The position numbers were made by a program, and so were the translations under genes. Below, piece by piece: positions 543 to 15,975 of a DNA stretch of 64,000 nucleotides. The DNA comes from Lophium mytilinum (lineage: Eukaryota). Positions within the stretch are counted from its first letter, which is position 1. Every line of letters begins with the position of its first letter. Below the pieces are notes generated by a model. It saw nothing but the letters and a program-made list of their open reading frames with translations. It was not told where the DNA came from and made no database searches. Where the stretch lies: contig MU004187.1 of NCBI GenBank assembly GCA_010093605.1, forward strand, positions 1,974,882 through 2,038,881, in the 5' to 3' direction.

Positions 543-1583
543 TCATTCTGCAAGCAATGCTGTCGCGTTCTTTTCGTAAATCTCCGCTCGTTCCTCTTCG
601 TTGAACAGATCTTCGAGCCCATCCTTCATCCGCTCCGCGAAGTTCTTGACAAACGGTGTTTGTGTGAACGGAAAATCACTTCCATACAGCAGTCGGCGAT
701 GGTCAATATTGTAACCCTCGAGTAAAGCCTTCAACTGTCCACTCCCACCTTTGTCTCCCGCAAATACAAAGCCAGCCAGATCGAAATAAAATTGCCGTGC
801 CACAGCTCCGCGAACCTCTTGGTCAACCAACACGGGTCCAGCCGGCACGACGGAAGAGAAGCCGATGAAACGTGAGAGTACAGGTGGCAGACATCCTCCG
901 GAGTGAGGGATGATAAAGCGAATGTTCGGACAACGGGCCACAGTGCCACTCAAGAAGAGATTCGTTACCGCGCGTGCCGTGTCAAAGAAGAATTCGTACA
1001 TCGGGATCGGATGTTTGGCAGCAAGTGGAGTCGCGTTGACCAGTGTAGGTGGCTCCGAGGCGGAGTTTTGGCAGATTACGCAAGGCATAGTAGGATGGAT
1101 GAACACTCTCGCCTTCAACCTGTCCAATTCCTGGAACACTGAGTCGAAGATGTCAGAGCCTAAGTAGTTTCCGTGGTAGTTGGTCAGGAGACCAAACCCG
1201 TCTGCCCCCTCTTCTTTAGCCTTCTTAATCTCCTCAAAGGTAGCATCAATGTCTGGCAGTGGTAGAGCGGCCCAGTAGCCAAATTTGTCTGGGTGGTCAC
1301 GCTTTAGAGACGCGGCATACGAGTTGCAGAAGCGCGTCAAGCGTATATTGAGGGCGTTGTCTTTGGCGTTGATGTTTGTCCCTGGAGAGCTGATGCTCAG
1401 GATCGATTTGGTGACATTTGCTTTCTTCATCATCTCAAGGTGGCCTTCGAGAGACCACGTCGGTATGGCTGGCATTCCATCAGGCTTCGAGTGGCCATTC
1501 TTTCGAAGCTCGTCGCAGTACTCAGGAGGAAGGAAGTGAGAGTGGACGTCTATCCGTGGTGGTAGCTGAGAATCATCGCCCAT
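543..1583 (-). CDS. Amidohydrolase-2 family metal-dependent decarboxylase/hydrolase (ACMSD / 6-methylsalicylate decarboxylase-like)
   Basis: Intronless ORF; likely start MGDDSQLPP at 1583. Motifs IDVHSH (HxH), FIHPT, IPHSGG and LYGSDFPF. TATATAA on the minus strand about 125 nt upstream. Confidence 0.88.
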   Translation of the reverse strand: MGDDSQLPPRIDVHSHFLPPEYCDELRKNGHSKPDGMPAIPTWSLEGHLEMMKKANVTKSILSISSPGTNINAKDNALNIRLTRFCNSYAASLKRDHPDKFGYWAALPLPDIDATFEEIKKAKEEGADGFGLLTNYHGNYLGSDIFDSVFQELDRLKARVFIHPTMPCVICQNSASEPPTLVNATPLAAKHPIPMYEFFFDTARAVTNLFLSGTVARCPNIRFIIPHSGGCLPPVLSRFIGFSSVVPAGPVLVDQEVRGAVARQFYFDLAGFVFAGDKGGSGQLKALLEGYNIDHRRLLYGSDFPFTQTPFVKNFAERMKDGLEDLFNEEERAEIYEKNATALLAE

Positions 1584-1940
1584 TGTCTGATGTTTGTAGT
1601 CTTTGTTGATTATATTCTTGATGCTTGAGTAGTTTGGTTCGGAGAGCACCAGCAGCCTCAAAATCAGATATGTAATCCGGATCGCAGGAACAACGGGGCA
1701 CCTGGACTTATATAGCAGAATTAATGCACACTGCATCCACTAAGCATGCACACCTGGCGCCACTACATTTCGGTGAATGGATCTACCCGCCGCTGCCCCA
1801 CTACCCCTCTGCCTCCGATCCCTTCCCCGATGCCGCCGCCGTCGACGTGTGTCACTCACAACTCCGTCCTCGAGTTATGACCTTTATAACCGCCACCCCA
1901 CCCCCCACAACACCCGACCGCTGCATACGAGGTCGCCAGG

Positions 1941-4142
1941 ATGGAGAAGGTTACGGATAAGATTGCCGCCCTGCCCAGCGATGCGCACTACTTCTCGCTG
2001 GAGTTCTTCCCGCCGAAAACGGCCATGGTAGGCATTCTCTAGCCACAAAAACCTTTTAGCGGCGTTGGCGATCAATTGACACGTCTCCACAGGGTTTTGC
2101 AAACCTCCAGAACCGACTGGAGCGCATGTCCCGGGCGCTGCGTCCGCTCTTCGTGACGGTAACGTGGGGTGCCGGCGGTTCCACAGCCACCAAGTCTCTC
2201 GAGCTCGCCGAAATCTGCCAGCGCCAATTGGGCCTGACGACATGTCTGCATCTGACCTGCACGAACATGAGCCGCTCCCTTGTGGACGACGCGTTGGAAC
2301 AAGCAAAGGCGCTGGGCATTCGCAATATCCTAGCGTTGCGGGGAGACGCGCCTAGGAGCGAGGAATACCGCAATGAAGAGAAGCCCGAAGAGGAGGACTC
2401 GAACAATGACTTCACCTGGGCTATAGATCTGGTGCGCTATATTCGCAAGCAATATGGAGACTACTTCTGCATTGGCGTGGCTGCGTATCCCGAGGGCCAC
2501 TCCGATCAGTCACATCCGCAAGACCAGGATCCGCTCTTCGACTTACCCTACCTAGTGGAGAAAACAAAGGCCGGGGCAGACTTCATAATGACACAACTGT
2601 TCTTTGATGTCGAGGCGTTTGACAAGTTTGAGAAGCTGCTGAGAGAGCATGAGTCAGGGGTCTTCAAGACAATACCCATAATACCCGGTTTGATGCCGAT
2701 CCAGAGCTATCAGATCCTACGGAGAGTCACCAAGCTGAGTCATGCGAAGCTGCCAGATAAGTTGCTCACTCGACTGGATGCCGTAAAGGGCGACGACGAA
2801 CTGGTTAAGCAGGTTGGAGTGGAGATCTTGAGCGAAGTAATAGATCACGTCAAGACAACCCCCAGTCCAGTGAGGAGAGGTTTTCATTTCTACACCTTGA
2901 ATCTGGAGAAGGCGGTAGCACACATTTTAGAACGATGTCACCTCATACCTCCAATTCAGCCAGACGAGGATGAAGCTGTGGCTGTGGACTTCTCCAAAGA
3001 CTTTGTGCCTCCTGAGGGCGCGCTGAAATCAAAGCACCGACGAAGGGTGTCTTCTGTCAACTCTGGGCCCCGTAATCGCGTAGTTGTGGAGACGCACACC
3101 AAATCAAGCAATACCAGCTTTGAAGCACGAGAGGACGAGGCAGGTGTACCACGAGACCCAATCAACACGAGAGCAAATACTCTTGCAATTTCAGAAGGAG
3201 AGGGTTCATTAGGACGGGAAGCTACTTGGGATGATTTCCCGAACGGACGATGGGGTGACGCAAGATCGCCAGGTACGAAAACTAACTCTTTAACTTAGTC
3301 TCAAGCCAAGAAAGTTTACTGATATTTATAGCATTCGGCGAAATCGATGGATATGGTCCTAGTCTTCACCTACCTACACCCCAGGCCTTGAAGCTATGGG
3401 GCCATCCAGTCACCGTTGAAGAAGTTTCGAATATATTCAGACGCCACATATCCGGTGACCTAGACGCCCTACCATGGAGTGAGGAGGGGCTGAATCCTGA
3501 AACTAACACCATTCGTAACGAACTTCTTCGCCTGAACGGTAAGGGTTGGTGGAGCGTGGCCAGTCAGCCTGCAGTAAACGGTCTCAAGAGCACTGACCCT
3601 ATCTTTGGGTGGGGACCAAGAAATGGCTTCGTCTTTCAAAAGGTACGTTCTTTTAGCCATGACAGTGCTTGTGTTTGCTAATGACAACACTCTAGCCCTT
3701 CGTCGAACTATTCATCCCGTCAGCAGACTGGTTCAAGCTACAAGCGCGCTTGGACCAGACCGACCAGATGACCTACTTTGCAGGAAACAAAGCAGGCCAT
3801 TTTTCGGCGTCGAACGAAGAATCAGTGAACCCCGTCACGTGGGGCACATTCGCTGGGAAGGAGTGAGTTCCTCAACACTTACGGCTTAGTCCTATAGACT
3901 GCATGAAAAGATTCTAACATAAGAACAGGATTATCACCCCCACAATTGTCGAGTCTGTTTCTTTCCGCGCCTGGCTGGAAGAAGCATTTAGCATCTGGGC
4001 TGAATGGCAGCGCATATACCCCACCCGATCCGCGACGTCGAAGCTGCTGGGCGGCATCATGAACGACTACTGGCTTGTCAATATCATCCACCACGGCTAT
4101 CTAGAGAAGGGTGCGCTTTGGGATTTCCTTAACGAGGACTAG
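1941..4142 (+). CDS. MET12: Methylenetetrahydrofolate reductase, MET12/MetF type
   Basis: Exon 1 MEKVTDKIAALPSDAHYFSLEFFPPKT; then VTVTWGAGGS, LHLTCTN, LALRGD, VAAYPEGH, FIMTQLFFD, HFYTLNLE, TWDDFPNGRWGDARSP, SQPAVNG, WGPRNGFVFQK. Introns approx 2028-2092, 3273-3331, 3643-3695, 3862-3929; TAG ends at 4142. Confidence 0.93.
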
Positions 4143-4685
4143 GTGGAACTGTAGTGTACTAGTGCAGATTTCCCTGGTTGCCATTTAATCCTGAATATTA
4201 TCATCAAAAGCTTGTGTGTATTCAATATAATGAGCAGCAAACGCCTTGAAGGTAGCTCAATACGCGTTCGGTTTTACTTTCAATCTTCGGAAGCGTTCCA
4301 GGGACACTACATTAATGTTTCTAGATCCAGATAACTTAGGACAGACATGAACAAAATCGTCCCATTTCAGTATCTTTGGTACTTTAATAACCTTCCCGCG
4401 GTTCCGCCATCCACAAAAAGACAGACGTGGTGGGTACCCAGGTAAACGAGGCCGTTGAACCCTGGAAAGCTCGCAGCCAGACCTATCCTACGCGTCACCA
4501 TCTTCCCACAGTGTAGTATAGAAATAGGTCCGCACCCTCCATACACAATCTATTCAATGCCATTGTGCACTCCGAGCCTTTCGACACCCGTTCGCCTCTC
4601 TGAACATCACACCTTCAAGCCGTAACGGTACCTTGCCTTCTCCATCCCCAGCCCCCGATCATAGGCTTACCCTCTCTAGCCTACA

Positions 4686-5510
4686 ATGCGCCAATCTCTA
4701 TACCTCGCCGCCGTCGCCCTCGTGGCCAACGTGGCCACTGGCATCCCCCTCGGCCCCAAAGGGAGCTTCTTTCACCCCGCGATCCCAAGCACCAATACTG
4801 CTGCTACGTTAAAATTGCTCCATAATGCCCATGACCGGGCGAACAATGGTAGCGAAGGTATTGCTGGAAATAAAACTGAGGCTACGGCCAAGCACGACGT
4901 TGAGCTGCCGAAGAAGATCGAGGACCGCCCAGTGACGCACCAATTTCTTGGGCACCCATGGTTCCCCGATTGGTTTCCACCATATAGATCCTACAAAGAT
5001 AAAGACATTGGTAGAGGCAAGCGTGTTGGTGGGCGTGTAGGTATTATCAAGCCTGCGAAGAGGGAGGACGGAGAGGTGCCGAAGAAGATCGACGACGTCC
5101 CGGCGGCGGATGGAGGCGACGGTGTTGCTGGAAACACAACTGAGTCTACGACCAAGCACTACACGGAAGAAAACTGGAAGTCAATGTCGGCATGGCAAAA
5201 ACTAGACATGGAAGACAGGTGGCGGCGGCATTTTTGCGGGCATGCAATCTTGTGCGTGCCACTGCCCCTAAATATGTCCAGATGGGATGAATTCAAGGGT
5301 CCATCTGAGCGTCACAAGACTATTACGCCTACGAAGAAGCAGGACGGAGAGGTACCGAAGCGGTCCCAGAAGTTCCCGTGGGTCGGGAAAACCCCTCCGG
5401 AGGGTCTAGGAAAGCGAGATACTACGTATCGGCCTATTCGGATTACGGAGTTCAATAGTGAGGGCGAGGTGGTGAAGGAGCAGACCTTGATGAGGAAGAT
5501 GCAGGCATAG
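4686..5510 (+). CDS. Secreted hypothetical protein with internal degenerate repeats and several KR/KK/RR sites (possible Kex2-processed precursor)
   Basis: 274-aa intronless ORF. Signal-peptide-like N-terminus MRQSLYLAAVALVANVATG/IP. Repeats G(I/V)AGN.TE.T.KH, E(L/V)PK(K/R) and P.K(R/K).DGEVPK are also visible in the DNA. Confidence 0.75.
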   Translation: MRQSLYLAAVALVANVATGIPLGPKGSFFHPAIPSTNTAATLKLLHNAHDRANNGSEGIAGNKTEATAKHDVELPKKIEDRPVTHQFLGHPWFPDWFPPYRSYKDKDIGRGKRVGGRVGIIKPAKREDGEVPKKIDDVPAADGGDGVAGNTTESTTKHYTEENWKSMSAWQKLDMEDRWRRHFCGHAILCVPLPLNMSRWDEFKGPSERHKTITPTKKQDGEVPKRSQKFPWVGKTPPEGLGKRDTTYRPIRITEFNSEGEVVKEQTLMRKMQA

Positions 5511-5856: not shown

Positions 5857-7238
5857 TCAGTCCTCATCATCATCATACGCCGCTGCAAGCCGTCTTGTGT
5901 GAGCTAGTCTTCGTCTCTCTTGCGTTGTCATTAGTCGGGGCTGCTGTGTGACTCTGTCCGGGATCGCTCTCTCAATGATAGCTGCTTCTTTGCTTGAATC
6001 TGTGTCCGGCGACGACGTGACAGTCGCATTCGACGAAGTAGGTGAAGCATCACGAACAATCTTCTCGCTCTGTACTTCGCCCCACGGAATAATCCACTCG
6101 CTGAGCCCTGTCCTAAGGGACGGATGCCGCGGGATGACAGGTAACGATCTGGGATTGGAGGCTATGGGTTTGCGGGGTATTGACTGCCTTTCATCCTGGC
6201 TCGGGGTGATCTCTTCGCTTATGGGTAGATCGGGCATACTTCGTGTTGCTGGGAGACAGCCTGGAAGCTCGGGATACGGTTTGCCGTTTTGTTGGAGGAT
6301 TGGGAGCGAGGGAAAATATCCCGAGGTGCCTCTGAGACTCAGGTGTGGACGAAGGCTGTCCTCTGACGAGGCGATAGCAGGTAGCGCGACGGGCATGATA
6401 GTCACTGGTTCTAGTGAGTTGTTAGCTTTGCAAATGTGTTCAGTGTAATCATGTACATACCTGGTAAGTTCTCGCTTGCGATCTCTATCTCTTGCGCGTT
6501 CATCTGCAGATCACTTCTTGTACTGAAGCTTCTTCTTTTCCTTCTTGAGTAAGGGCCAAGATGGGAGTCTTCGGTCATCTCGCCTGATCCTCGCCCCGGA
6601 ACCAACAAGGTAGGAGAGCTATCGTCCGATGCCCCAAGTCTTAGGTCCATCTCCACACCTTGCATAGCTTGGACCGCAATCATCAGGCTCTGATGACATG
6701 TACTCAGGGCTATCTGCCTGGTAATGAGCTTCTGCTGATTCCGTAACACCCATTCGAACTTATTTTTCATCTTAACCTCCACGCGACCATCCATATCTAT
6801 CCTCGCGTTTTCAACGTATAGCCCGAGGTCGTTGAGCGCCCGCTGTACGTCCATGATCGTCCCATCAATCCAATTTCTTTCTCGCGGGAAGCTTGCGAAA
6901 TGATCTGCCACTCTGCGACAGCGACGCAGTCGGAAAGCTTCATCTACGTCATGGCGGACGCGTTCAATCAGCGATATGAAGACGCGGTTGTCGTCCGAGA
7001 CCTCTTTGAGAGCTGTAACGAAATCAACGAATCCAAAGATGGTTGAGATAGCGGTGAAAATGCTACTCGAGCCTGGGTCGGAGAATCTATGTTGTTTTCC
7101 AGCTTCTCCAGGCGGTTCCATGGACTTGCGGCGTTGTTCATTACTTTGGAAGGATTTCCTGTGGTTCTTGGTGACTCCCGTCGAACGTGTGAGGGTAGAG
7201 GCCATTGTCGATGAATATATGGCTGAGTGGCCATCCAT
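5857..7238 (-). CDS. Hypothetical protein with HeLo-like/fungal STAND N-terminal helical domain and Pro/Ser-rich tail
   Basis: Two ORFs joined by a 50-nt intron at 6411-6460 (GTATGT...GCTAAC...TAG). DPGSSSIFTAISTIFGF hydrophobic helix, then heptad-like helices and KFEWVLRNQQKL...LSTCHQSL, typical of HeLo-like domains. Confidence 0.62.
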
Positions 7239-9161: not shown

Positions 9162-10571
9162 TCACTCATCTATCTGCCGAACTACCAATTCACTAAAAGT
9201 CCGCGGGGGACTAAACCTTCTGCCCTCTTCATCCATAATCTGCTCCAGTGCAGGGAAAATGACAAGACTGCCCGGCGCCATGGTCCGAGAATCTGGCCAC
9301 TCCAGTCTCCACGAGCTGCGTTGAGAGAACAAGACGAACGCGAAGGTAGCAGCTCGCTTGATGATCTCCTCCAAATTCCGTCGTCGGGTACTGTGATCCA
9401 TTCGAGTAACAGCGAATGGAGCCAAGATCGCTTCTAAGACTTCTGTAGTTTTTAGGATATTGGGGTTGCGAGCATCTTGCGGGCCGAATGGGTTCAGAAG
9501 ATAGGCGTTTTTGATGCATTCGGCGGTTATTGCCTTCCAGTTCGTCGTAAACGCGTCCCACGCTATGCATAAGTTAGCTATGCTCGTAAGACTATTAAAC
9601 GATCGAGGCCTACCTTTGGGCTCCCAATTTAAAGCGCTCATAGAGGAGGAGCATTCAACGACTTCTGGAGGTAGCAAAGTGGTCCTGGGGTCGCCGTTGA
9701 GTTTGCTTCTTGATATTATGACCCAAGCAATACAGAATCTTAGGCCAACTTCTCGTGTCGTCGGATTCGACAGCAATGTGCCCAGGGTTCCGACTGAGAT
9801 GGGCATGTTATCTCCAAGAGCTTGGAGAGCATCAAGATCGACCGTGCCAGAGTCAACAAGAGACTCATGATAGTAGCTCTGAACATGGTTTTTGATCAAG
9901 GTGCTAAGTTTCGTGATATCTCCAGAGATGGCACTATCTTCGAGAGGGAGCGGTAGGTGGTTTTCGACTACTCTCAAAGTCGAGTCCGAGCTAGCCTTGG
10001 GGAGTGTTCCAAGAATGGGTTGCTTTTCGGGTCCCGCATGAGCTGCTGCGCCGTGGTTTGGAAATCCAGCCTGGTTTTTGTTTCTCGATCTGCGCATCAG
10101 AAGCCAAACGATGAACCCGGCGATGGCTGCCCCTATGACGAGACAGGCGATGGCAATGCCAGCGGTCGCTCCTCCAGACACACCAGACTTGGACGTATGA
10201 ATTTTGCCTGTGCTCGTAGGTGATGCGGTGGACTGAGTGGCACTCAGGGCATTTCCAGAATTCGCGGTAGAGGTAACAGAAGATAAGCTTTGGCCTGGTG
10301 TTGGATTGGACATAGTTGTCTGTGTATCTGTCCCAGATTGCACAATGGAAGAAAAGGATGTTGGAGCTGATGAAGACGGCGCGGCAAAAGTGTGAGGATT
10401 ACTCTCGTACCAAATTACACCATCGCTCGCAACTGAAAACCAGATTCCATCGAAAGAAACACCTGGGTCGCCTGGTACTACGGCAGTATTGCTTAAGAAC
10501 AGGGTACCTGACACCAGAGATGCCGTAATCGGGGGCTTATTCAACACAGTCAATGTTATCGTAGAGGTCAT
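9162..10571 (-). CDS. Single-pass membrane protein: Ser/Thr-rich N-terminal region, one TM helix, cytoplasmic helical domain ending in a GrpE/MIEAP-like motif
   Basis: S/T-rich stalk; TM segment GGATAGIAIACLVIGAAIAGFIVWLLM followed by RRSR; 51-nt intron at 9563-9613; C-terminal LVIFPALEQIMDEEG. Confidence 0.75.
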   Translation of the reverse strand: MTSTITLTVLNKPPITASLVSGTLFLSNTAVVPGDPGVSFDGIWFSVASDGVIWYESNPHTFAAPSSSAPTSFSSIVQSGTDTQTTMSNPTPGQSLSSVTSTANSGNALSATQSTASPTSTGKIHTSKSGVSGGATAGIAIACLVIGAAIAGFIVWLLMRRSRNKNQAGFPNHGAAAHAGPEKQPILGTLPKASSDSTLRVVENHLPLPLEDSAISGDITKLSTLIKNHVQSYYHESLVDSGTVDLDALQALGDNMPISVGTLGTLLSNPTTREVGLRFCIAWVIISRSKLNGDPRTTLLPPEVVECSSSMSALNWEPKGRPRSFNSLTSIANLCIAWDAFTTNWKAITAECIKNAYLLNPFGPQDARNPNILKTTEVLEAILAPFAVTRMDHSTRRRNLEEIIKRAATFAFVLFSQRSSWRLEWPDSRTMAPGSLVIFPALEQIMDEEGRRFSPPRTFSELVVRQIDE

Positions 10572-11431
10572 CTTGATGTAGCGGTGGAGGCCTTATGGGA
10601 ATACACAAGACGTGGAAAGAGTGGAACAAGCGCCAACAGAGGCAATAGAGCAGACAAAAAGATTGCAACAAAAATGGAGCCTGCCACACAGGCAAAGACT
10701 CAAAGGTGGTATTCTGCGAGGATGCCGATCGTAGAGCTGAGGAGACGTCCGGGTAGAAGAACACTCCTAGGCCACCTGCACTAATATCATGGCCCCCAAG
10801 GACGGATGAGGCACAGTCGATGCACGAAATCACAGCCTTGCGCGAAACATTGCTAGGTCTCAAACGAGTGGATCATGTTGAAAGATGGAACTGGGGCAGT
10901 GCTTTGTCCTTTCTTCAAGGCGCCCGATCAGGGGATGTGGTGCGCCGGAGGCTGGGGTAGCTGCATAAGGGAGTTTTAGAGGGACCAAATATTGTGAACC
11001 ACAATTGGAAGAGATCACCTAGAATAACTCGAGATGCCTTCATCAGAACTTCTTCACTATAAAGATGAAGTTATCAAAACTGATATCAGTAACGTTGATA
11101 ACAACGCTCTCGAATAATACGGGAGCGATAAGGAGAGGAAACTCTTCGAACCATTAACATATTGGGGGCCGAAAAAAGAAAGAGTAGATGAAGCGCTTAG
11201 CAGCAGAAAACGGCATTAGTATGACTAGCAGGATCGCTACACACTTGCCGCTCAATTTAGAAGCCTCCAATGATCAACGAATAACTGGGGGCCAGCTGCT
11301 GTGCCGCGAGGCTGTGACAACTGCAGGGCGACGGCACTGCCCGCCCCTAGGTCACATCCCGGCCCTACACATAAGGTAGCTGTTCTGCTCAAGAGTATCG
11401 ATATACTAGACGCAGAATAAAGCAAGAAAAG

Positions 11432-13866
11432 ATGGAGGTGGTAAAGCCGCATATGGTGATCGGGATCGACTTTGGCATGACTTGTGAGTGCTGATGTGAG
11501 GCTGGAGAGAGGGGCCGGTGAGGCCAGTAGCGCCGAGTCTATCCCCCTTTCGGGCCGGCGGCTATTCCTTCCACCATCATTCCTCTCCATAACCACAAGG
11601 TGGATTTGATGCTGATGGTCTATCACTTCAGGTACTGGAGTATCTTATGCAAATCTATCAATCGGCTCAGAAACAGTGCGATGGGTTCAGAAATGGCCCG
11701 GCCGCTTTCAGGCAAACGAAAATAAAGTTCCCACTGTCGTGGTATATCCAACCAACAAATCAGAGCCATCATCATGGGGATTTCTATCAGAAACAATAGC
11801 AGAGACTACTGCCGAGGACAAAGAATACAGAGAGTGGTTCAAAACATCTCTGGATCCCCAGAAGCTATTGAAAAAGCAAGAGGAGGATCCTGAAAACACA
11901 GCGAAATCCATCGCTGAAGTTGAGAAGTGGTACACGGACTACTTACAGAAGCTGTATCAGTACATCGCTTTCAAACTTGAGTCTGAGCTCTCGGGAGTGA
12001 CGTGGAAAGACGCGACGATTGAGTTCTTGTTCAGTGTACCGACTACCTGGGCGCCTAACCCTACCGTGGAGCTATTTCGAAGCATTACCTCAAGAGCTGG
12101 GTTCGGGGAGCACATTGGCCATTCTGTGTCCATTGGCTTGACGGAAGCCGAAGCAGCTGCTGTACACGTATCTACAGAAGCTTGTGGTATCTTTAGGGTG
12201 CGTTTTCAAACAGTCTACTCCGTGGCCCCTTCTTCAATCTAATAACGTCTAGGAAAGAGATATATTACTTGTCTGTGACGCAGGAGGTGGTACCACCGAC
12301 TTATCTGTGCTCCGCGTCACAAACACGTATGGTCAAAGTATATCATTAGAGCAGCTAGATGTTGTGTTTGGCGAAACCATCGGATCTGCTGCTATCGACT
12401 TTGGGTTTCAGAAGCTTGTACGGGCAAGGCTGGACGCGGCCAACAGTGCCATTGAGCTCCCGATATCAATCGACGATGCGTGTTGGGAGATGATGAAGAG
12501 CAGGGACTTTCAGGCAGTGAAGTGCGAGCACGGCTCCCCTGATGATACACCATTCTTCTCCATCGCCATCTCAAAGTTGCCTCCGTCTTACAATAATCCA
12601 GAGCATAACATTAAAGACGGAGAGATGAAGTTTGCTCGGTAAGTCGCTTCCGAAGCCTGAAGTGACAACTTTGACAAGTCTGACCATAAGTAGAGAAGAT
12701 TTACAGCGAATGTTCGACAGACAAATCGAGAAGCTATTCAGACTCGTTGACACTCAACTAGAAAGTTTACGCCGCAAGCATGCTCATGAGAGAGTAGTTC
12801 GTACTTTGCTGCCTTGCCGTTTTACGCCCCTGCCTAACACTCGACAGTCCCATCTCGTACTCTCCGGTGGTCTCGGAAACTCATCCTACGTCCAACAACG
12901 CCTAAGCGCCCGCTACGCCTATGGCTCCAACTCACCACACTCCAACGCAAACGGCATGCAAGTGCGCATCGCCCCGGACCCCCAGCTCGCCGTCTGCAAA
13001 GGACTAGTCGCCGACCGCGTCCGCAAGCTCACTACCAACCAATCCGTGCTCGGCTGGCGGTGCTGTCGCGCGTCCTACGGCACCATCTGCAAGATCTTAT
13101 ACAACAAGAAGAATCCCGAACACGTCGGCAAGCCGACAATCAAAGACCCCATCAACAATAAGCTCTACATCTCACAAGCCGTAGCATGGTTCATCAAAAA
13201 AGGGGAGCCGGTGTCGGTTGATCAGCCCATCATCCACAATTTCTTGAGAAAGCTGAGTCCTGGCGACCCGCGGCGAGCGTTCCCGACGAGTATCATTACG
13301 AGCGATGTGGATAAGGAGTATTTGCCGTTTAACATGAGTCCTAGTAAGATATTCATTCCCACTCAGTAGACTATAGAGTTAATCTGGATGGATTAGATGC
13401 AAGATTACTGTGCGAAATCGAGTCAGACCTCTCAACCGCAGACGAGAAACGGTTTGTAGAAAAGAACAAACAGTTCTGGAAGGTGGCGAAGCACTACTTC
13501 AAGGTGGAGTACCAAATCAGAGTCATAATTGGTGCTGCGGACATCCGGTTTGAGCTTTGTGAGTATCTTCTCCTCTCATACATACCCTTTTGCTCTCGTT
13601 CAGTATCGATATCTTTCAACAGCCTAACAGGCTTAGGGTTTGACGGGCAAAAGCTCAGCCGTGACCATCCTATTCGCGTAGAATGGACCGCCGCAACACC
13701 ACCGCCACCTGAGCCAGTGGTACCCGTGGCAGTCCAATCACCAAGCCTCTTCTTGCCACGCCGTAGCTGGCAAAGCCATAGTCCTGTCACGAGCATCATC
13801 TCGCCGAAAAGTAGCAACAACTCTCCTGTTAGGCCGGATGCTCAGCCAACTCATTTGTATGCGTGA
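11432..13866 (+). CDS. Atypical Hsp70-like actin-fold ATPase (fungal HSPA12-like family)
   Basis: VIGIDFGMT-GVSYA (phosphate 1), KVPT, SWGF, FSVPTTW, LTEAEAAA, ILVCDAGGGTTD (phosphate 2), LVLSGGLGNSSYV (adenosine), PQLAVCKGLV, RASYG. Introns approx 11484-11631, 12198-12252, 12639-12690, 12797-12847, 13344-13396, 13559-13636. No EEVD tail. Confidence 0.88.
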
Positions 13867-14399: not shown

Positions 14400-15975
14400 T
14401 CAAAGCAGACCATGCTTGGCCAGGTTGTGGTAGATGCGCGCTGGCATCACGTTGCCCTGTGAATCCTCCATTTGCACAACATTCTCCACGGCCTGTGCCT
14501 CCTGCTTCTTGTTTTGCGTGATCTTCTGCCACAAGAGTATGGCCTCTTCAATTTTCGTTATCTCTCTGAAAAGAGTAGTAGTTGTAACGCCGAGTGACTT
14601 CAGGCCATAGATATGCCGAGGCTCATTAAAGTGTTTGTCGAACGCGCGCCGGCCCATGTACACATAGTTGCCGCAGATCTCGCAGGGAAACTCCACGCCG
14701 AGGCCATGCAGCTTGTAGAGCCAGAATGGAATGGGCTTGCCGTCCCATCCGAGCGGAAGCTTGAGCGGGTTGTAGATTTTGCCTTCTTCGTCCTCGTCGT
14801 CGCCTCCGTCCACAGCCCCGGGACCGCCTGCCTTGTCGTCGGTTTCCGCATACATCGCGTCGATTTCGAGTTGACGTTCCTTATCTGTCATGCCTTGCCT
14901 ACGTTCGACGTTGACCCGAGTATCGCTACGCTCAGTGGACATGGCGGCGGCTAGCTTGCGGACTCGGAATTCGCGTTCGGCAATGACGCGCTCTTTGAGG
15001 CGATGGATAGAATTTGCTGATGAGGCGGAGGTGCCGTTGCTAGTTTCCTTGCTGCTTCCGCGTGCTTTGCGCAGCTCGGCGGCTTTGATGTGTTTCTTTC
15101 CCGTCAGATGTGCGTTGTAAACGTTCTCATTCTTGAAAGCCTTCTCGCAGTCCGCGCAGAACAGATCGTCCTTCGTAGCATCGTCTTCGAGGGCCGTTGA
15201 GCCAGTCTGAACGTTCTGCTCCCATCCTGGGACCTGGTCCTTCTCCCACGCCTCTTCGAACTCCTTGTCAAACGATTCGAAGAGCTTCTTCAGATCCTCA
15301 AGTGGTTTCGTGCGCTCCATGAAGCTCTCGAGGTACTTCGCAAGCGATGTGATGTACTTGAAATAGTCATCCGTCATCTTGTCGTTGTACCGCAGGGTGC
15401 ACTCTGGAAGTGTGAATTTGTCGAAGATGTCGATGTACTGCACGTAAGGAATGCGGCGAATATTCTTGACGCCCTGGAGGTTGACATAATGCTCGTGCAG
15501 CGCCACTAGATCGAAGAACCGGCCACATCCCTCCTCTCCCGTGAATCTAGATTCAAGCTCTGCGATCGCCGCGGCCTTCTCGTCTGGGCCTCTCTTGTAT
15601 GCGCGCTCCAGGTCTTCGACAGGTTCGTTGGGGTAACGCCGATGGAAGCTCTTGATTCCGGCAAGCTCCTCATTGAAAGCCTGGAAAGGGTCACCGGTCG
15701 TGTACTTTTGAATGTCGCTGGCTAGTTTCCTGTCCTTGTCTTTGCGAAGGACTTGCGCACGCTTAGCCTGATTTCGAAAGTGGACGAGAAACTGGGCAAT
15801 TTGATGGTCGCGGGTTAGACGCTCCCGGATCTAACACAAAAGCCTGTCAGCTTGCTTGTCGAGAGCGATTGGCAGTACTTACATGCTTTGGGTCCTCCAG
15901 GACGCGGTCCGCGATAGCTTGCTCCAGCCTCTCCATATCCTCCCAAAGGAGCCTCTCATCCTCCAGCGCACTCAT
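14400..15975 (-). CDS. PRP9: Splicing factor 3a subunit 3 (SF3a60/Prp9)
   Basis: MSALEDER...EDMERLEQAIADR; intron approx 15831-15882; FTGEEGCGRFFDL, C2H2 finger CADC...HLTGKKH, YNPLKLPLGWDGKPIPFWLYKLHGL, CEICGNYVYMGRRAFDKHF. Confidence 0.95.

Follow-up and report, generated by a model that had tools for sequence, protein, structure and literature searches.

Why a gene for a putative membrane-anchored protein should lie head-to-head with a gene for a lidless Hsp70-like ATPase, and whether the two products work together, is the question raised by a locus of the fungus Lophium mytilinum (Dothideomycetes, Mytilinidiales). The locus lies in a stretch of 64,000 nucleotides of contig MU004187.1 (assembly GCA_010093605.1, positions 1,974,882 to 2,038,881 of the forward strand), which is referred to below as the window and in whose numbering all positions are given; the membrane-anchored protein is encoded by gene A and the Hsp70-like protein by gene B. 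An earlier note, made from the letters of the window, proposed an Hsp70-like ATPase with its own membrane-tethered exchange factor or partner, and named recurrent adjacency in other fungi and a confident predicted interface among the checks to be made. In the present analysis the idea of a dedicated partner gained support from the gene linkage and from a predicted complex (interface score ipSAE 0.73), and that of an exchange site possibly from a predicted contact on subdomain IIB of the nucleotide-binding domain (NBD) of B, while the proposed homology of A to GrpE or MIEAP was not borne out. The chance that A and B are physical partners, with the domain of A docked on the NBD of B as modelled, is judged to be about even.

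Gene Models and Conserved Pairing of A and B

The translations of both genes are letter-identical to annotated proteins of L. mytilinum. The spliced translation of gene A is exactly P0001; the unspliced open reading frame (ORF) would give 469 residues, of which 17 (residues 320–336) are read-through of the intron, and outside them the identity is 100%. The length of 469 residues first given for A is thus corrected to 452 by the 51-nt intron, and the other parts of that description, i.e., a stalk, one transmembrane (TM) segment, a helical region and the C-terminal end, stand. The seven-exon translation of gene B is exactly P0065, which carries the source name "Actin-like ATPase domain-containing protein". 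The genes are head-to-head, and the spacing of about 860 bp read earlier from the letters was measured as 860 bp between the start codons. Since precisely the seven introns, one in A and six in B and all of them GT..AG, are missing from a single contig of 4567 nt (one public run) that spans A, B and the entire spacer, this contig is taken as transcript-derived support for both gene models; the run behind it is only guessed to be RNA, and the contig is uninformative on transcript ends and expression level.

When metagenome contigs were scanned with a profile of A, 42 loci with a relative of A were obtained and searched with B by tblastn. At least 3 kb upstream of A is present in 21 of them, which are the informative loci (15 others are too short), and in 17 of these 21 B is found upstream of A on the opposite strand. 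In six further loci the contig breaks off within B and only its 5′ part is present. Among the 17 paired loci are orthologues of A that are only 31–35% identical to the A of the window (L015, L027, L034, L037–L039); measured from the 5′ end of the B match, the TM segment of A is 0.8–1.5 kb away throughout. In two cases, L013/L014 and L037/L039, the same organism was likely sampled twice.

Moreover, consecutive locus tags for A and B are found in 11 named species of Dothideomycetes and Lecanoromycetes, so that the recurrent adjacency proposed as a check was found in both kinds of data. These species are Coniosporium apollinis (W97_02172/02173), Kalmusia sp. (N0V90_008975/008976) and nine lichen-forming fungi: Letrouitia sp. 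1, Kuettlingeria erythrocarpa, cf. Caloplaca sp. 1 and sp. 2, Flavoplaca citrina, Gallowayella cf. fulva, G. weberi, G. concinna and Xanthoria steineri. X. steineri belongs to the Lecanoromycetes (Teloschistales), and the other eight lichen-forming species are presumably of the same class and order. In 18 further named Dothideomycetes, the contigs that carry A and B have the same length, so that both are apparently on one contig, which is weaker evidence, as only the contig is shared. As a control, the SF3a60/Prp9 gene on the other side of B was followed, and it adjoins B in only 3 loci and lies elsewhere in 3; because this gene is rarely beside B, the conservation of the A–B pair appears to be specific to the cluster and not a matter of general synteny.

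Predicted Complex of A and B

The complex was predicted without alignment from residues 1–610 of B and a construct of 272 residues of A, in which the domain occupies residues 21–272 (the addition of 180 gives the numbering of P0001). The ipSAE was 0.73, 0.75 and 0.73 in three runs, against 0.00 for the best of three controls, so that a confident interface of the kind called for by the earlier note is predicted; the partner had a pLDDT (predicted local distance difference test) of 87, and at least 98% of the contacts were common to the runs. Of 78 solved complexes, 51 attained the mark used for this test, as did 2 of 108 mismatched pairs; in eukaryotes, the counts were 39 of 65 for solved pairs with no similar complex of earlier date and 2 of 126 for unrelated pairs. 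The passing mismatches scored 0.34–0.59, and the 0.73 of A–B lies well above them. No solved complex contains the domain of A.

On the side of A, three elements are predicted to make the contact (construct numbering): the motif LPLPLED...KNH.QSY (24, 28–33, 36–37, 40–41, 44–45, 47–49, 51–53), the helix RRNLEEIIKR (201–202, 205–206, 208–209) and the DEEG turn and beyond (250–251, 256, 260, 263). The stretches RRNLEEIIKRA and MDEEG, which had been singled out from the letters, belong to this predicted interface. On the side of B, the contact would consist of residues 32, 34–35, 37, 44–48 (QANEN), 290–291, 293–295, 297–298, 301–309 and 332. The QANEN loop directly precedes a KVPT strand, and B 293–306 aligns to DnaK 267–280 within a profile match of 91% probability (hhalign); DnaK 267–280, and hence B 293–306, is taken here to fall in subdomain IIB by the usual subdomain limits.

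Conservation follows the predicted contact on A: at least 90% conservation is reached by 20 of 30 interface residues and by 58 of 222 others (Fisher p = 1.9e-5). Inside the interface of B, the residues A45, N46, E47, N48, Q293, C297 and F308 are invariant. In the unpaired paralogues of A (L032, L036, L041 and L042, 27–40% identical to the A of the window), IKNHVQSYYH is changed to ILTHVNKFY, and LED to LSN or LPD, whereas paired orthologues at 31–35% identity (L015, L027, L034, L038) keep the interface motif.

Protein B, a Divergent Member of the Hsp70 Superfamily

The kept ATPase motifs, the absent lid and the absent EEVD tail ascribed to B by the earlier note are all found. The actin-fold motifs GIDFG, LTEAEAAA, CDAGGGTTD and LSGGLG are invariant in 44 homologues of B, and the phosphate-1, phosphate-2, connect and adenosine motifs are thus accounted for; in the AlphaFold2 model (pLDDT 75.4) no helices follow residue 432, so that a helical lid is lacking, and the protein ends in ...THLYA instead of EEVD. 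By Foldseek, the model matches full-length DnaK, BiP, mortalin, Ssb, Ssz1 and Sse1 at E of about 2e-17 over about 620–630 columns, and the RAC (ribosome-associated complex) structures 5mb9 and 6sr6 are among the matches. The profile of B matches E. coli DnaK (sequence of the annotated K-12 record, as for GrpE below) by hhalign with B 148–396 on DnaK 137–361. By sequence the relationship is faint: the Pfam family HSP70 (PF00012) scores 11.6 bits on B (E 0.077), below the cut-off of 20.6; a phmmer search of the PDB with the single sequence of B gave nothing relevant; and the best match of a profile of 44 sequences among PDB sequences was mortalin at E 0.074 only. B is, on this modelling, a very divergent member of the Hsp70 superfamily, recognised by fold and profile–profile comparison only.

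Lidless Hsp70s of the HSPA12 type range from fungi to vertebrates. In a Protein Atlas feature search, the nearest named clusters to B were "Heat shock 70 kDa protein 12A" of Ascomycota (0.98) and chordate HSPA12A.1 (0.95, 185 shared features); part of the fungal clusters of B carry DUF8340 (PF27033). The designation of B as HSPA12-like comes from this search alone and is treated as a supported lead. B shares with HSPA12A/B an NBD plus a beta domain, the missing helical lid and a strong divergence from canonical Hsp70s; it differs from them by the sub-threshold HSP70 score and by the DUF8340 in part of the cluster.

A second B-like paralogue, P0165 (BU16DRAFT_472014), lies on another contig of L. 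mytilinum and is 54% identical to B over residues 1–610. Two B-like proteins (P0124 and P0151) are also found in Patellaria atrata. In Coniosporium apollinis, the homologue P0128 (H2201_008810, 974 residues) is annotated as a fusion with a protein kinase domain (PF00069/PF07714), which could be genuine or could come from the merging of gene models.

Protein A and Its Domain Family

Protein A is made up of a Ser/Thr-rich stalk, one TM segment and a C-terminal domain. The stalk is presumed to lie outside and the C-terminus in the cytoplasm, a topology suggested by the basic residues after the TM segment. The cytoplasmic part was modelled by AlphaFold2 from an alignment of 31 sequences (pLDDT 81.2, predicted template modelling score 0.81) as nine helices and a five-strand C-terminal unit. 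Its conserved stretches are, in order, PLED.AISGEISK...IKNHVQSYYH, TRE.ALRF.IAW..SR, LLPPE, R.RNLEE..KRAA.FAF.LFSQ and FPAL.Q..DE.G...PPR. The family contains 64 proteins by a word-seeded search and 97 by a profile search; in an exhaustive HMMER search, 698 clusters formed at 50% identity had E ≤ 0.001, and 321 of these had E ≤ 1e-10. The architecture is uniform, with the domain at the C-terminus, and the members are fungal as far as their names go.

The isolated domain matched no Pfam family at E ≤ 10, and the 31 family members matched 19 families at this threshold, with weak mucin-like or TM-like matches only (Podoplanin 15/31, VSP 15/31). A search of PDB sequences with A gave chance matches to TM-like segments only; a Protein Atlas search with the domain gave only unnamed Ascomycota clusters at 0.84–0.89, under the 0.9 level; and Foldseek of the domain against the PDB gave none at E ≤ 0.001 (best E 0.12), the beta unit not being searched separately. 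By these searches, the domain belongs to no known family and has no clear known fold, and it represents, judging from the names of its members, a fungus-specific family so far undescribed. No BAG domain is among the Pfam matches of the 31 members at E ≤ 10 or among the structural matches listed, and HspBP1 or another known cofactor domain was likewise not found in A.

In its Ser/Thr-rich stalk, single TM segment and cytoplasmic C-terminus (the topology being inferred), A has the architecture of the cell-wall sensors Mid2 and Wsc. Three homologues of A are named "Mid2 domain-containing protein" in their source and one "cell wall integrity and stress response component", and a Mid2 or WSC domain is absent from the Pfam families matched by the 31 members. 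Unlike the Wsc/Mid2 sensors, A has a large folded cytoplasmic domain in place of a short tail, and no evident signal peptide.

Among the metagenome-derived predictions of the A family (P0033–P0064), many end in ...KPQG(K/M), exactly at the intron position of the window; the intron was evidently missed by the gene callers, and these entries are truncated.

The locus L031 is likewise among the distant A-like paralogues without a B neighbour. In the unpaired A-like copies (L032:7779-8822, L036:7515-8870, L031, L041 and L042), the tblastn match begins only past the TM region of A, and the alignments of the copies in L041 and L042 contain in-frame stops. In L032, L036 and L041, a helicase-like gene adjoins the A-like gene, which lies downstream of it.

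Intergenic Region

The 860-bp spacer presumably holds a shared bidirectional promoter together with the 5′ untranslated regions (5′ UTRs) of both genes. As the 4567-nt contig runs unbroken from A across the spacer into B, with the introns of both strands removed, the 5′ UTRs may abut or overlap, of which the contig is no proof.

A conserved element of 20 nt, CTGTGCCGCGAGGCTGTGAC, was found 114 nt upstream of the start codon of B. The pattern, CTGTGCCGC(A/G)AGGCTG(A/T)GAC, was derived from k-mer enrichment in 22 intergenic regions. The element is unique in the window (0.04 occurrences expected by chance), and the degenerate pattern matches exactly in 9 of 44 loci, always in the orientation of B. 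In 6 loci, a related motif is 133–143 nt away from where the B match starts; in 5 others and in the window, the distance is 262–490 nt. The element could be a promoter site or a 5′-UTR element. A hairpin within it (GCC-GCAA-GGC) was considered and dropped, with only 3 base pairs by eye.

Alternative Explanations

Several points weigh against a physical partnership. All the evidence for it is computational, and the present data do not bear on nucleotide exchange itself. The complex test was also passed by 7 of 44 blindly drawn neighbouring gene pairs. On the side of B, conservation is only weakly enriched in the interface (14 of 26 residues against 234 of 584 others; Fisher p = 0.12, rank test p = 0.02), B being highly conserved over its whole length; and the enrichment on the side of A is not fully independent of the complex score, as a language-model fold may implicitly use conservation. 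The placement of B 32–48 in lobe I of the model comes from the order of secondary-structure elements and not from alignment. A B neighbour is missing in 4 of the 21 informative loci (L032, L036, L041, L042), where the A-like genes are the most distant. In L. mytilinum itself, the paralogue P0165 retains 17 of the 26 predicted interface residues of B, and no second A-like protein was found by word-seeded and profile protein searches, so that B-type proteins may also act without A. With no signal peptide evident in A, its N-out topology follows solely from the positive-inside rule. Finally, the RNA nature of the run behind the spliced contig is a guess, and a contig over two genes does not prove one transcript.

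Part of this evidence would also be explained if the two genes were merely co-regulated from a shared bidirectional promoter, e.g., in one stress response, with products that do not touch and with promoter sharing or overlapping 5′ UTRs keeping them adjacent. The conserved divergent arrangement with its spacing of about 0.8–1.5 kb, the conserved intergenic element, the inclusion of the whole spacer in one transcript-like contig and the passing of the test by blind neighbour pairs all fit this explanation, which is given a real chance, though a distinctly smaller one than direct partnership. It does not account for a score of 0.73 against controls of 0.00 and above the range of the passing mismatches, for a predicted contact on the invariant motif of A, or for the loss of that motif exactly in the paralogues without a B neighbour. 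It is also conceivable that A is a client or sensor held by the beta-rich C-terminal domain of B and freed under stress, as in a chaperone-titration switch, since this domain superposes on the substrate-binding beta domain of Hsp70, the architecture of A is sensor-like and the linkage is conserved. The predicted interface of B, which is confined to the NBD (32–48, 290–309 and 332, none in 436–597), and the contact surface of A, which is a folded helical face and not an extended peptide, make this improbable.

The suggestion, taken from the earlier note, of homology between the C-terminal helix-plus-beta ending of A and the GrpE head or the animal MIEAP domain was given up as next to impossible. 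In its favour there is the general shape, i.e., helices and then a small beta unit, and the predicted contact on IIB is compatible with a function like that of an exchange factor. Neither GrpE (PF01025) nor MIEAP (PF16026) was matched at E ≤ 10 by any of the 31 family members (0/31) or by the protein itself; comparison of the family profile with E. coli GrpE by hhalign gave a probability of 0.13% over 17 columns, which lie outside the C-terminal part; and no structural match was obtained by Foldseek at the threshold given above.

Proposed Mechanism and Relation to Known Systems

If A and B are partners, the following course of events may be pictured. The two genes would be transcribed divergently from one 860-bp region and their products would form a complex. 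A would expose a mucin-like Ser/Thr-rich outer stalk, cross the membrane by one TM helix and carry in the cytoplasm a folded domain some 250 residues long, of which the motif LPLPLED...IKNHVQSY, the RRNLEEIIKR helix and the turn at DEEG would grip the QANEN loop (lobe I) and residues 290–309 (IIB) of B. In this way B would be tethered to the cytoplasmic face of the membrane. As the predicted contact spans both lobes flanking the nucleotide cleft, A would probably also set the nucleotide state of B, in the role of an exchange factor or of a clamp; given the partnership, whether A affects nucleotide exchange by B is regarded as an evenly balanced matter. It is speculated, from the likeness of the stalk to fungal surface sensors, that through the pair a signal from the surface may reach the ATPase.

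GrpE binding by DnaK requires a loop at about residues 28–34 that directly precedes the TTPS strand, and the QANEN loop of B is placed like it relative to the KVPT strand. The likeness to GrpE–DnaK thus consists in the predicted contact on IIB plus a lobe-I loop of the NBD; A differs in having no detectable sequence or fold relationship to GrpE, in being membrane-anchored and in having no evident dimeric stalk. GrpE opens the cleft of the NBD by rotating IIB (PMC4753570), and all known Hsp70 exchange factors, despite unrelated folds, are reported to target this subdomain, which suggests convergent evolution; BAG domains are among those that do so (PMC4753570).

The closest working analogue is Snl1 of yeast, a BAG-domain cofactor of Hsp70 anchored in the endoplasmic reticulum membrane (PMC3962485). 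Both proteins have one TM anchor and a cytosolic helical domain that acts, or in A is predicted to act, on the NBD of an Hsp70. A differs by the lack of a BAG or other Pfam match, by its long Ser/Thr-rich N-terminal part and by a larger domain of about 250 residues with a beta unit; in addition, the protein presumed to be its partner is encoded by the adjoining gene and is lidless and HSPA12-like, and not a canonical Ssa/Ssb Hsp70. Since Snl1 exists, the earlier statement that no characterised fungal system of this kind is known was too strong as to kind; as to family it holds, A having no known cofactor domain. In Ssz1–Zuo1 (RAC), an atypical Hsp70 likewise forms a stable complex with one dedicated partner that anchors it to a cellular structure (PMC3879978, PMC13580251). 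There a ribosome-bound J-domain protein, and no membrane protein, serves as the anchor, the genes do not lie side by side, and A has no homology to Zuo1. Taken together, A–B would be an Hsp70-family ATPase with a membrane-anchored, NBD-binding cofactor, a kind of system that is known, in which the family of A and the HSPA12-like partner would be new.

According to a 2026 review, the function of HSPA12 is unknown and its mechanism untested (PMC13580251), and no membrane partner of animal HSPA12A/B is described in the part of the source consulted. In a census of Ascomycota Hsp70s, which was seeded with the 14 yeast genes, seven subfamilies are given and the HSPA12-like proteins are not among these (PMC3879978). 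In the main texts of the literature searched, no description of the A–B pair, of DUF8340/PF27033 or of a fungal HSPA12-like partner was met. A linked membrane-anchored partner with a precise predicted interface makes the question of HSPA12 function approachable by experiment. For an extensive fungal domain family so far uncharacterised, a partner that is specific and open to test is thereby offered, together with a working context for the HSPA12-like branch. If the proposal is true, one more unrelated fold joins the set of cofactors converging on subdomain IIB of the NBD (PMC4753570).

Features of the Locus and Neighbouring Genes

Table 1. Positions of the genes, domains and elements of the locus in the window.
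Feature	Position	Strand	Remarks
Amidohydrolase	546-1739	-	
Methylenetetrahydrofolate reductase	2060-3295	+	
ORF without Pfam match	4680-5507	+	
Gene C	~5860..7121 (approximate limits)	-	Downstream of A, same strand; conserved helical region of ~125 residues
Gene A	9162..10571	-	P0001, BU16DRAFT_353874, 452 residues
Gene A, exons	Exon 1 10571-9614; intron 9613-9563; exon 2 9562-9162	-	Exon 2 includes the stop codon
Gene A, intron	9563..9613	-	51 nt, in frame; GTAGGC...CATAG, GT..AG ends, CTAAC branch-like site
Conserved cytoplasmic domain of A	9165..9962	-	P0001 ~204-452; nine helices plus five-strand C-terminal unit (model)
Most conserved motif of A, LPLPLED..ISG.I.KL..LIKNHVQSY	9873..9950	-	P0001 208-233; core of the predicted contact with B
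Single TM segment of A	10098..10172	-	Residues ~134-158 or ~135-159, then RRSRNK; hydropathy scan
Ser/Thr-rich stalk of A	10173..10391	-	Residues 61-133, 47% Ser + Thr; presumed extracellular
Spacer between the start codons	10572..11431	.	860 bp; covered fully by one transcript-like contig
Conserved 20-nt element	11299..11318	+	See text
Gene B	11432..13866	+	P0065, BU16DRAFT_617235, 664 residues; seven exons, six GT..AG introns
Gene B, exons	11432-11483, 11632-12197, 12253-12638, 12694-12796, 12848-13343, 13397-13558, 13637-13866	+	
Nucleotide-binding (actin-fold) domain of B	11432..13045 (introns included)	+	Residues ~1-435; model, Foldseek, hhalign
QANEN loop of B	11709..11723	+	Residues 44-48; A45-N48 invariant in 44/44 homologues; predicted contact with A
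B residues 290-309, RDFQAVKCEHGSPDDTPFFS	12502..12561	+	Predicted contact with A
Beta-rich C-terminal domain of B	13046..13662	+	Residues ~436-597; aligns with the Hsp70 substrate-binding beta domain
Disordered Pro-rich tail of B	13663-13863	+	From residue 598; model
SF3a60/Prp9 splicing factor, C2H2 zinc finger	14400-15830	-	Neighbour on the other side of B

Apart from B, a third gene may belong to the arrangement. Relatives of gene C are found at the same position, i.e., downstream of A, in 20 of the 42 metagenome loci at E ≤ 1e-3 (e.g., L001:9521-10135 and L034:9772-10146); by the authors' tally, gene C is present in 20 of the 26 loci that have at least 1.7 kb downstream of A. The six of these without gene C are L031, L036, L038, L040, L041 and L042, four of which are distant unpaired paralogues of A. 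As this position is kept, the conserved unit may be B-A-C. A further-reaching reading, which is considered rather doubtful, would make B-A-C a conserved three-gene transmembrane module of filamentous ascomycetes: A would be a mucin-like surface sensor whose cytoplasmic domain has a new fold, an independently evolved fifth structural class of Hsp70 nucleotide-exchange factor or NBD clamp that is dedicated to B and couples surface events to its ATPase cycle, with C as client or output. Were this the case, a partner and a working context would be defined for the first time in the HSPA12-like branch of the Hsp70 superfamily.

The conserved region of gene C has no Pfam match and no match among PDB sequences. 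Its pattern is ...RVR.D..EA.RL...WI.G...ALNDIG...EWVL...KL...L.TCHQSL..., in which TCHQ.L is invariant.

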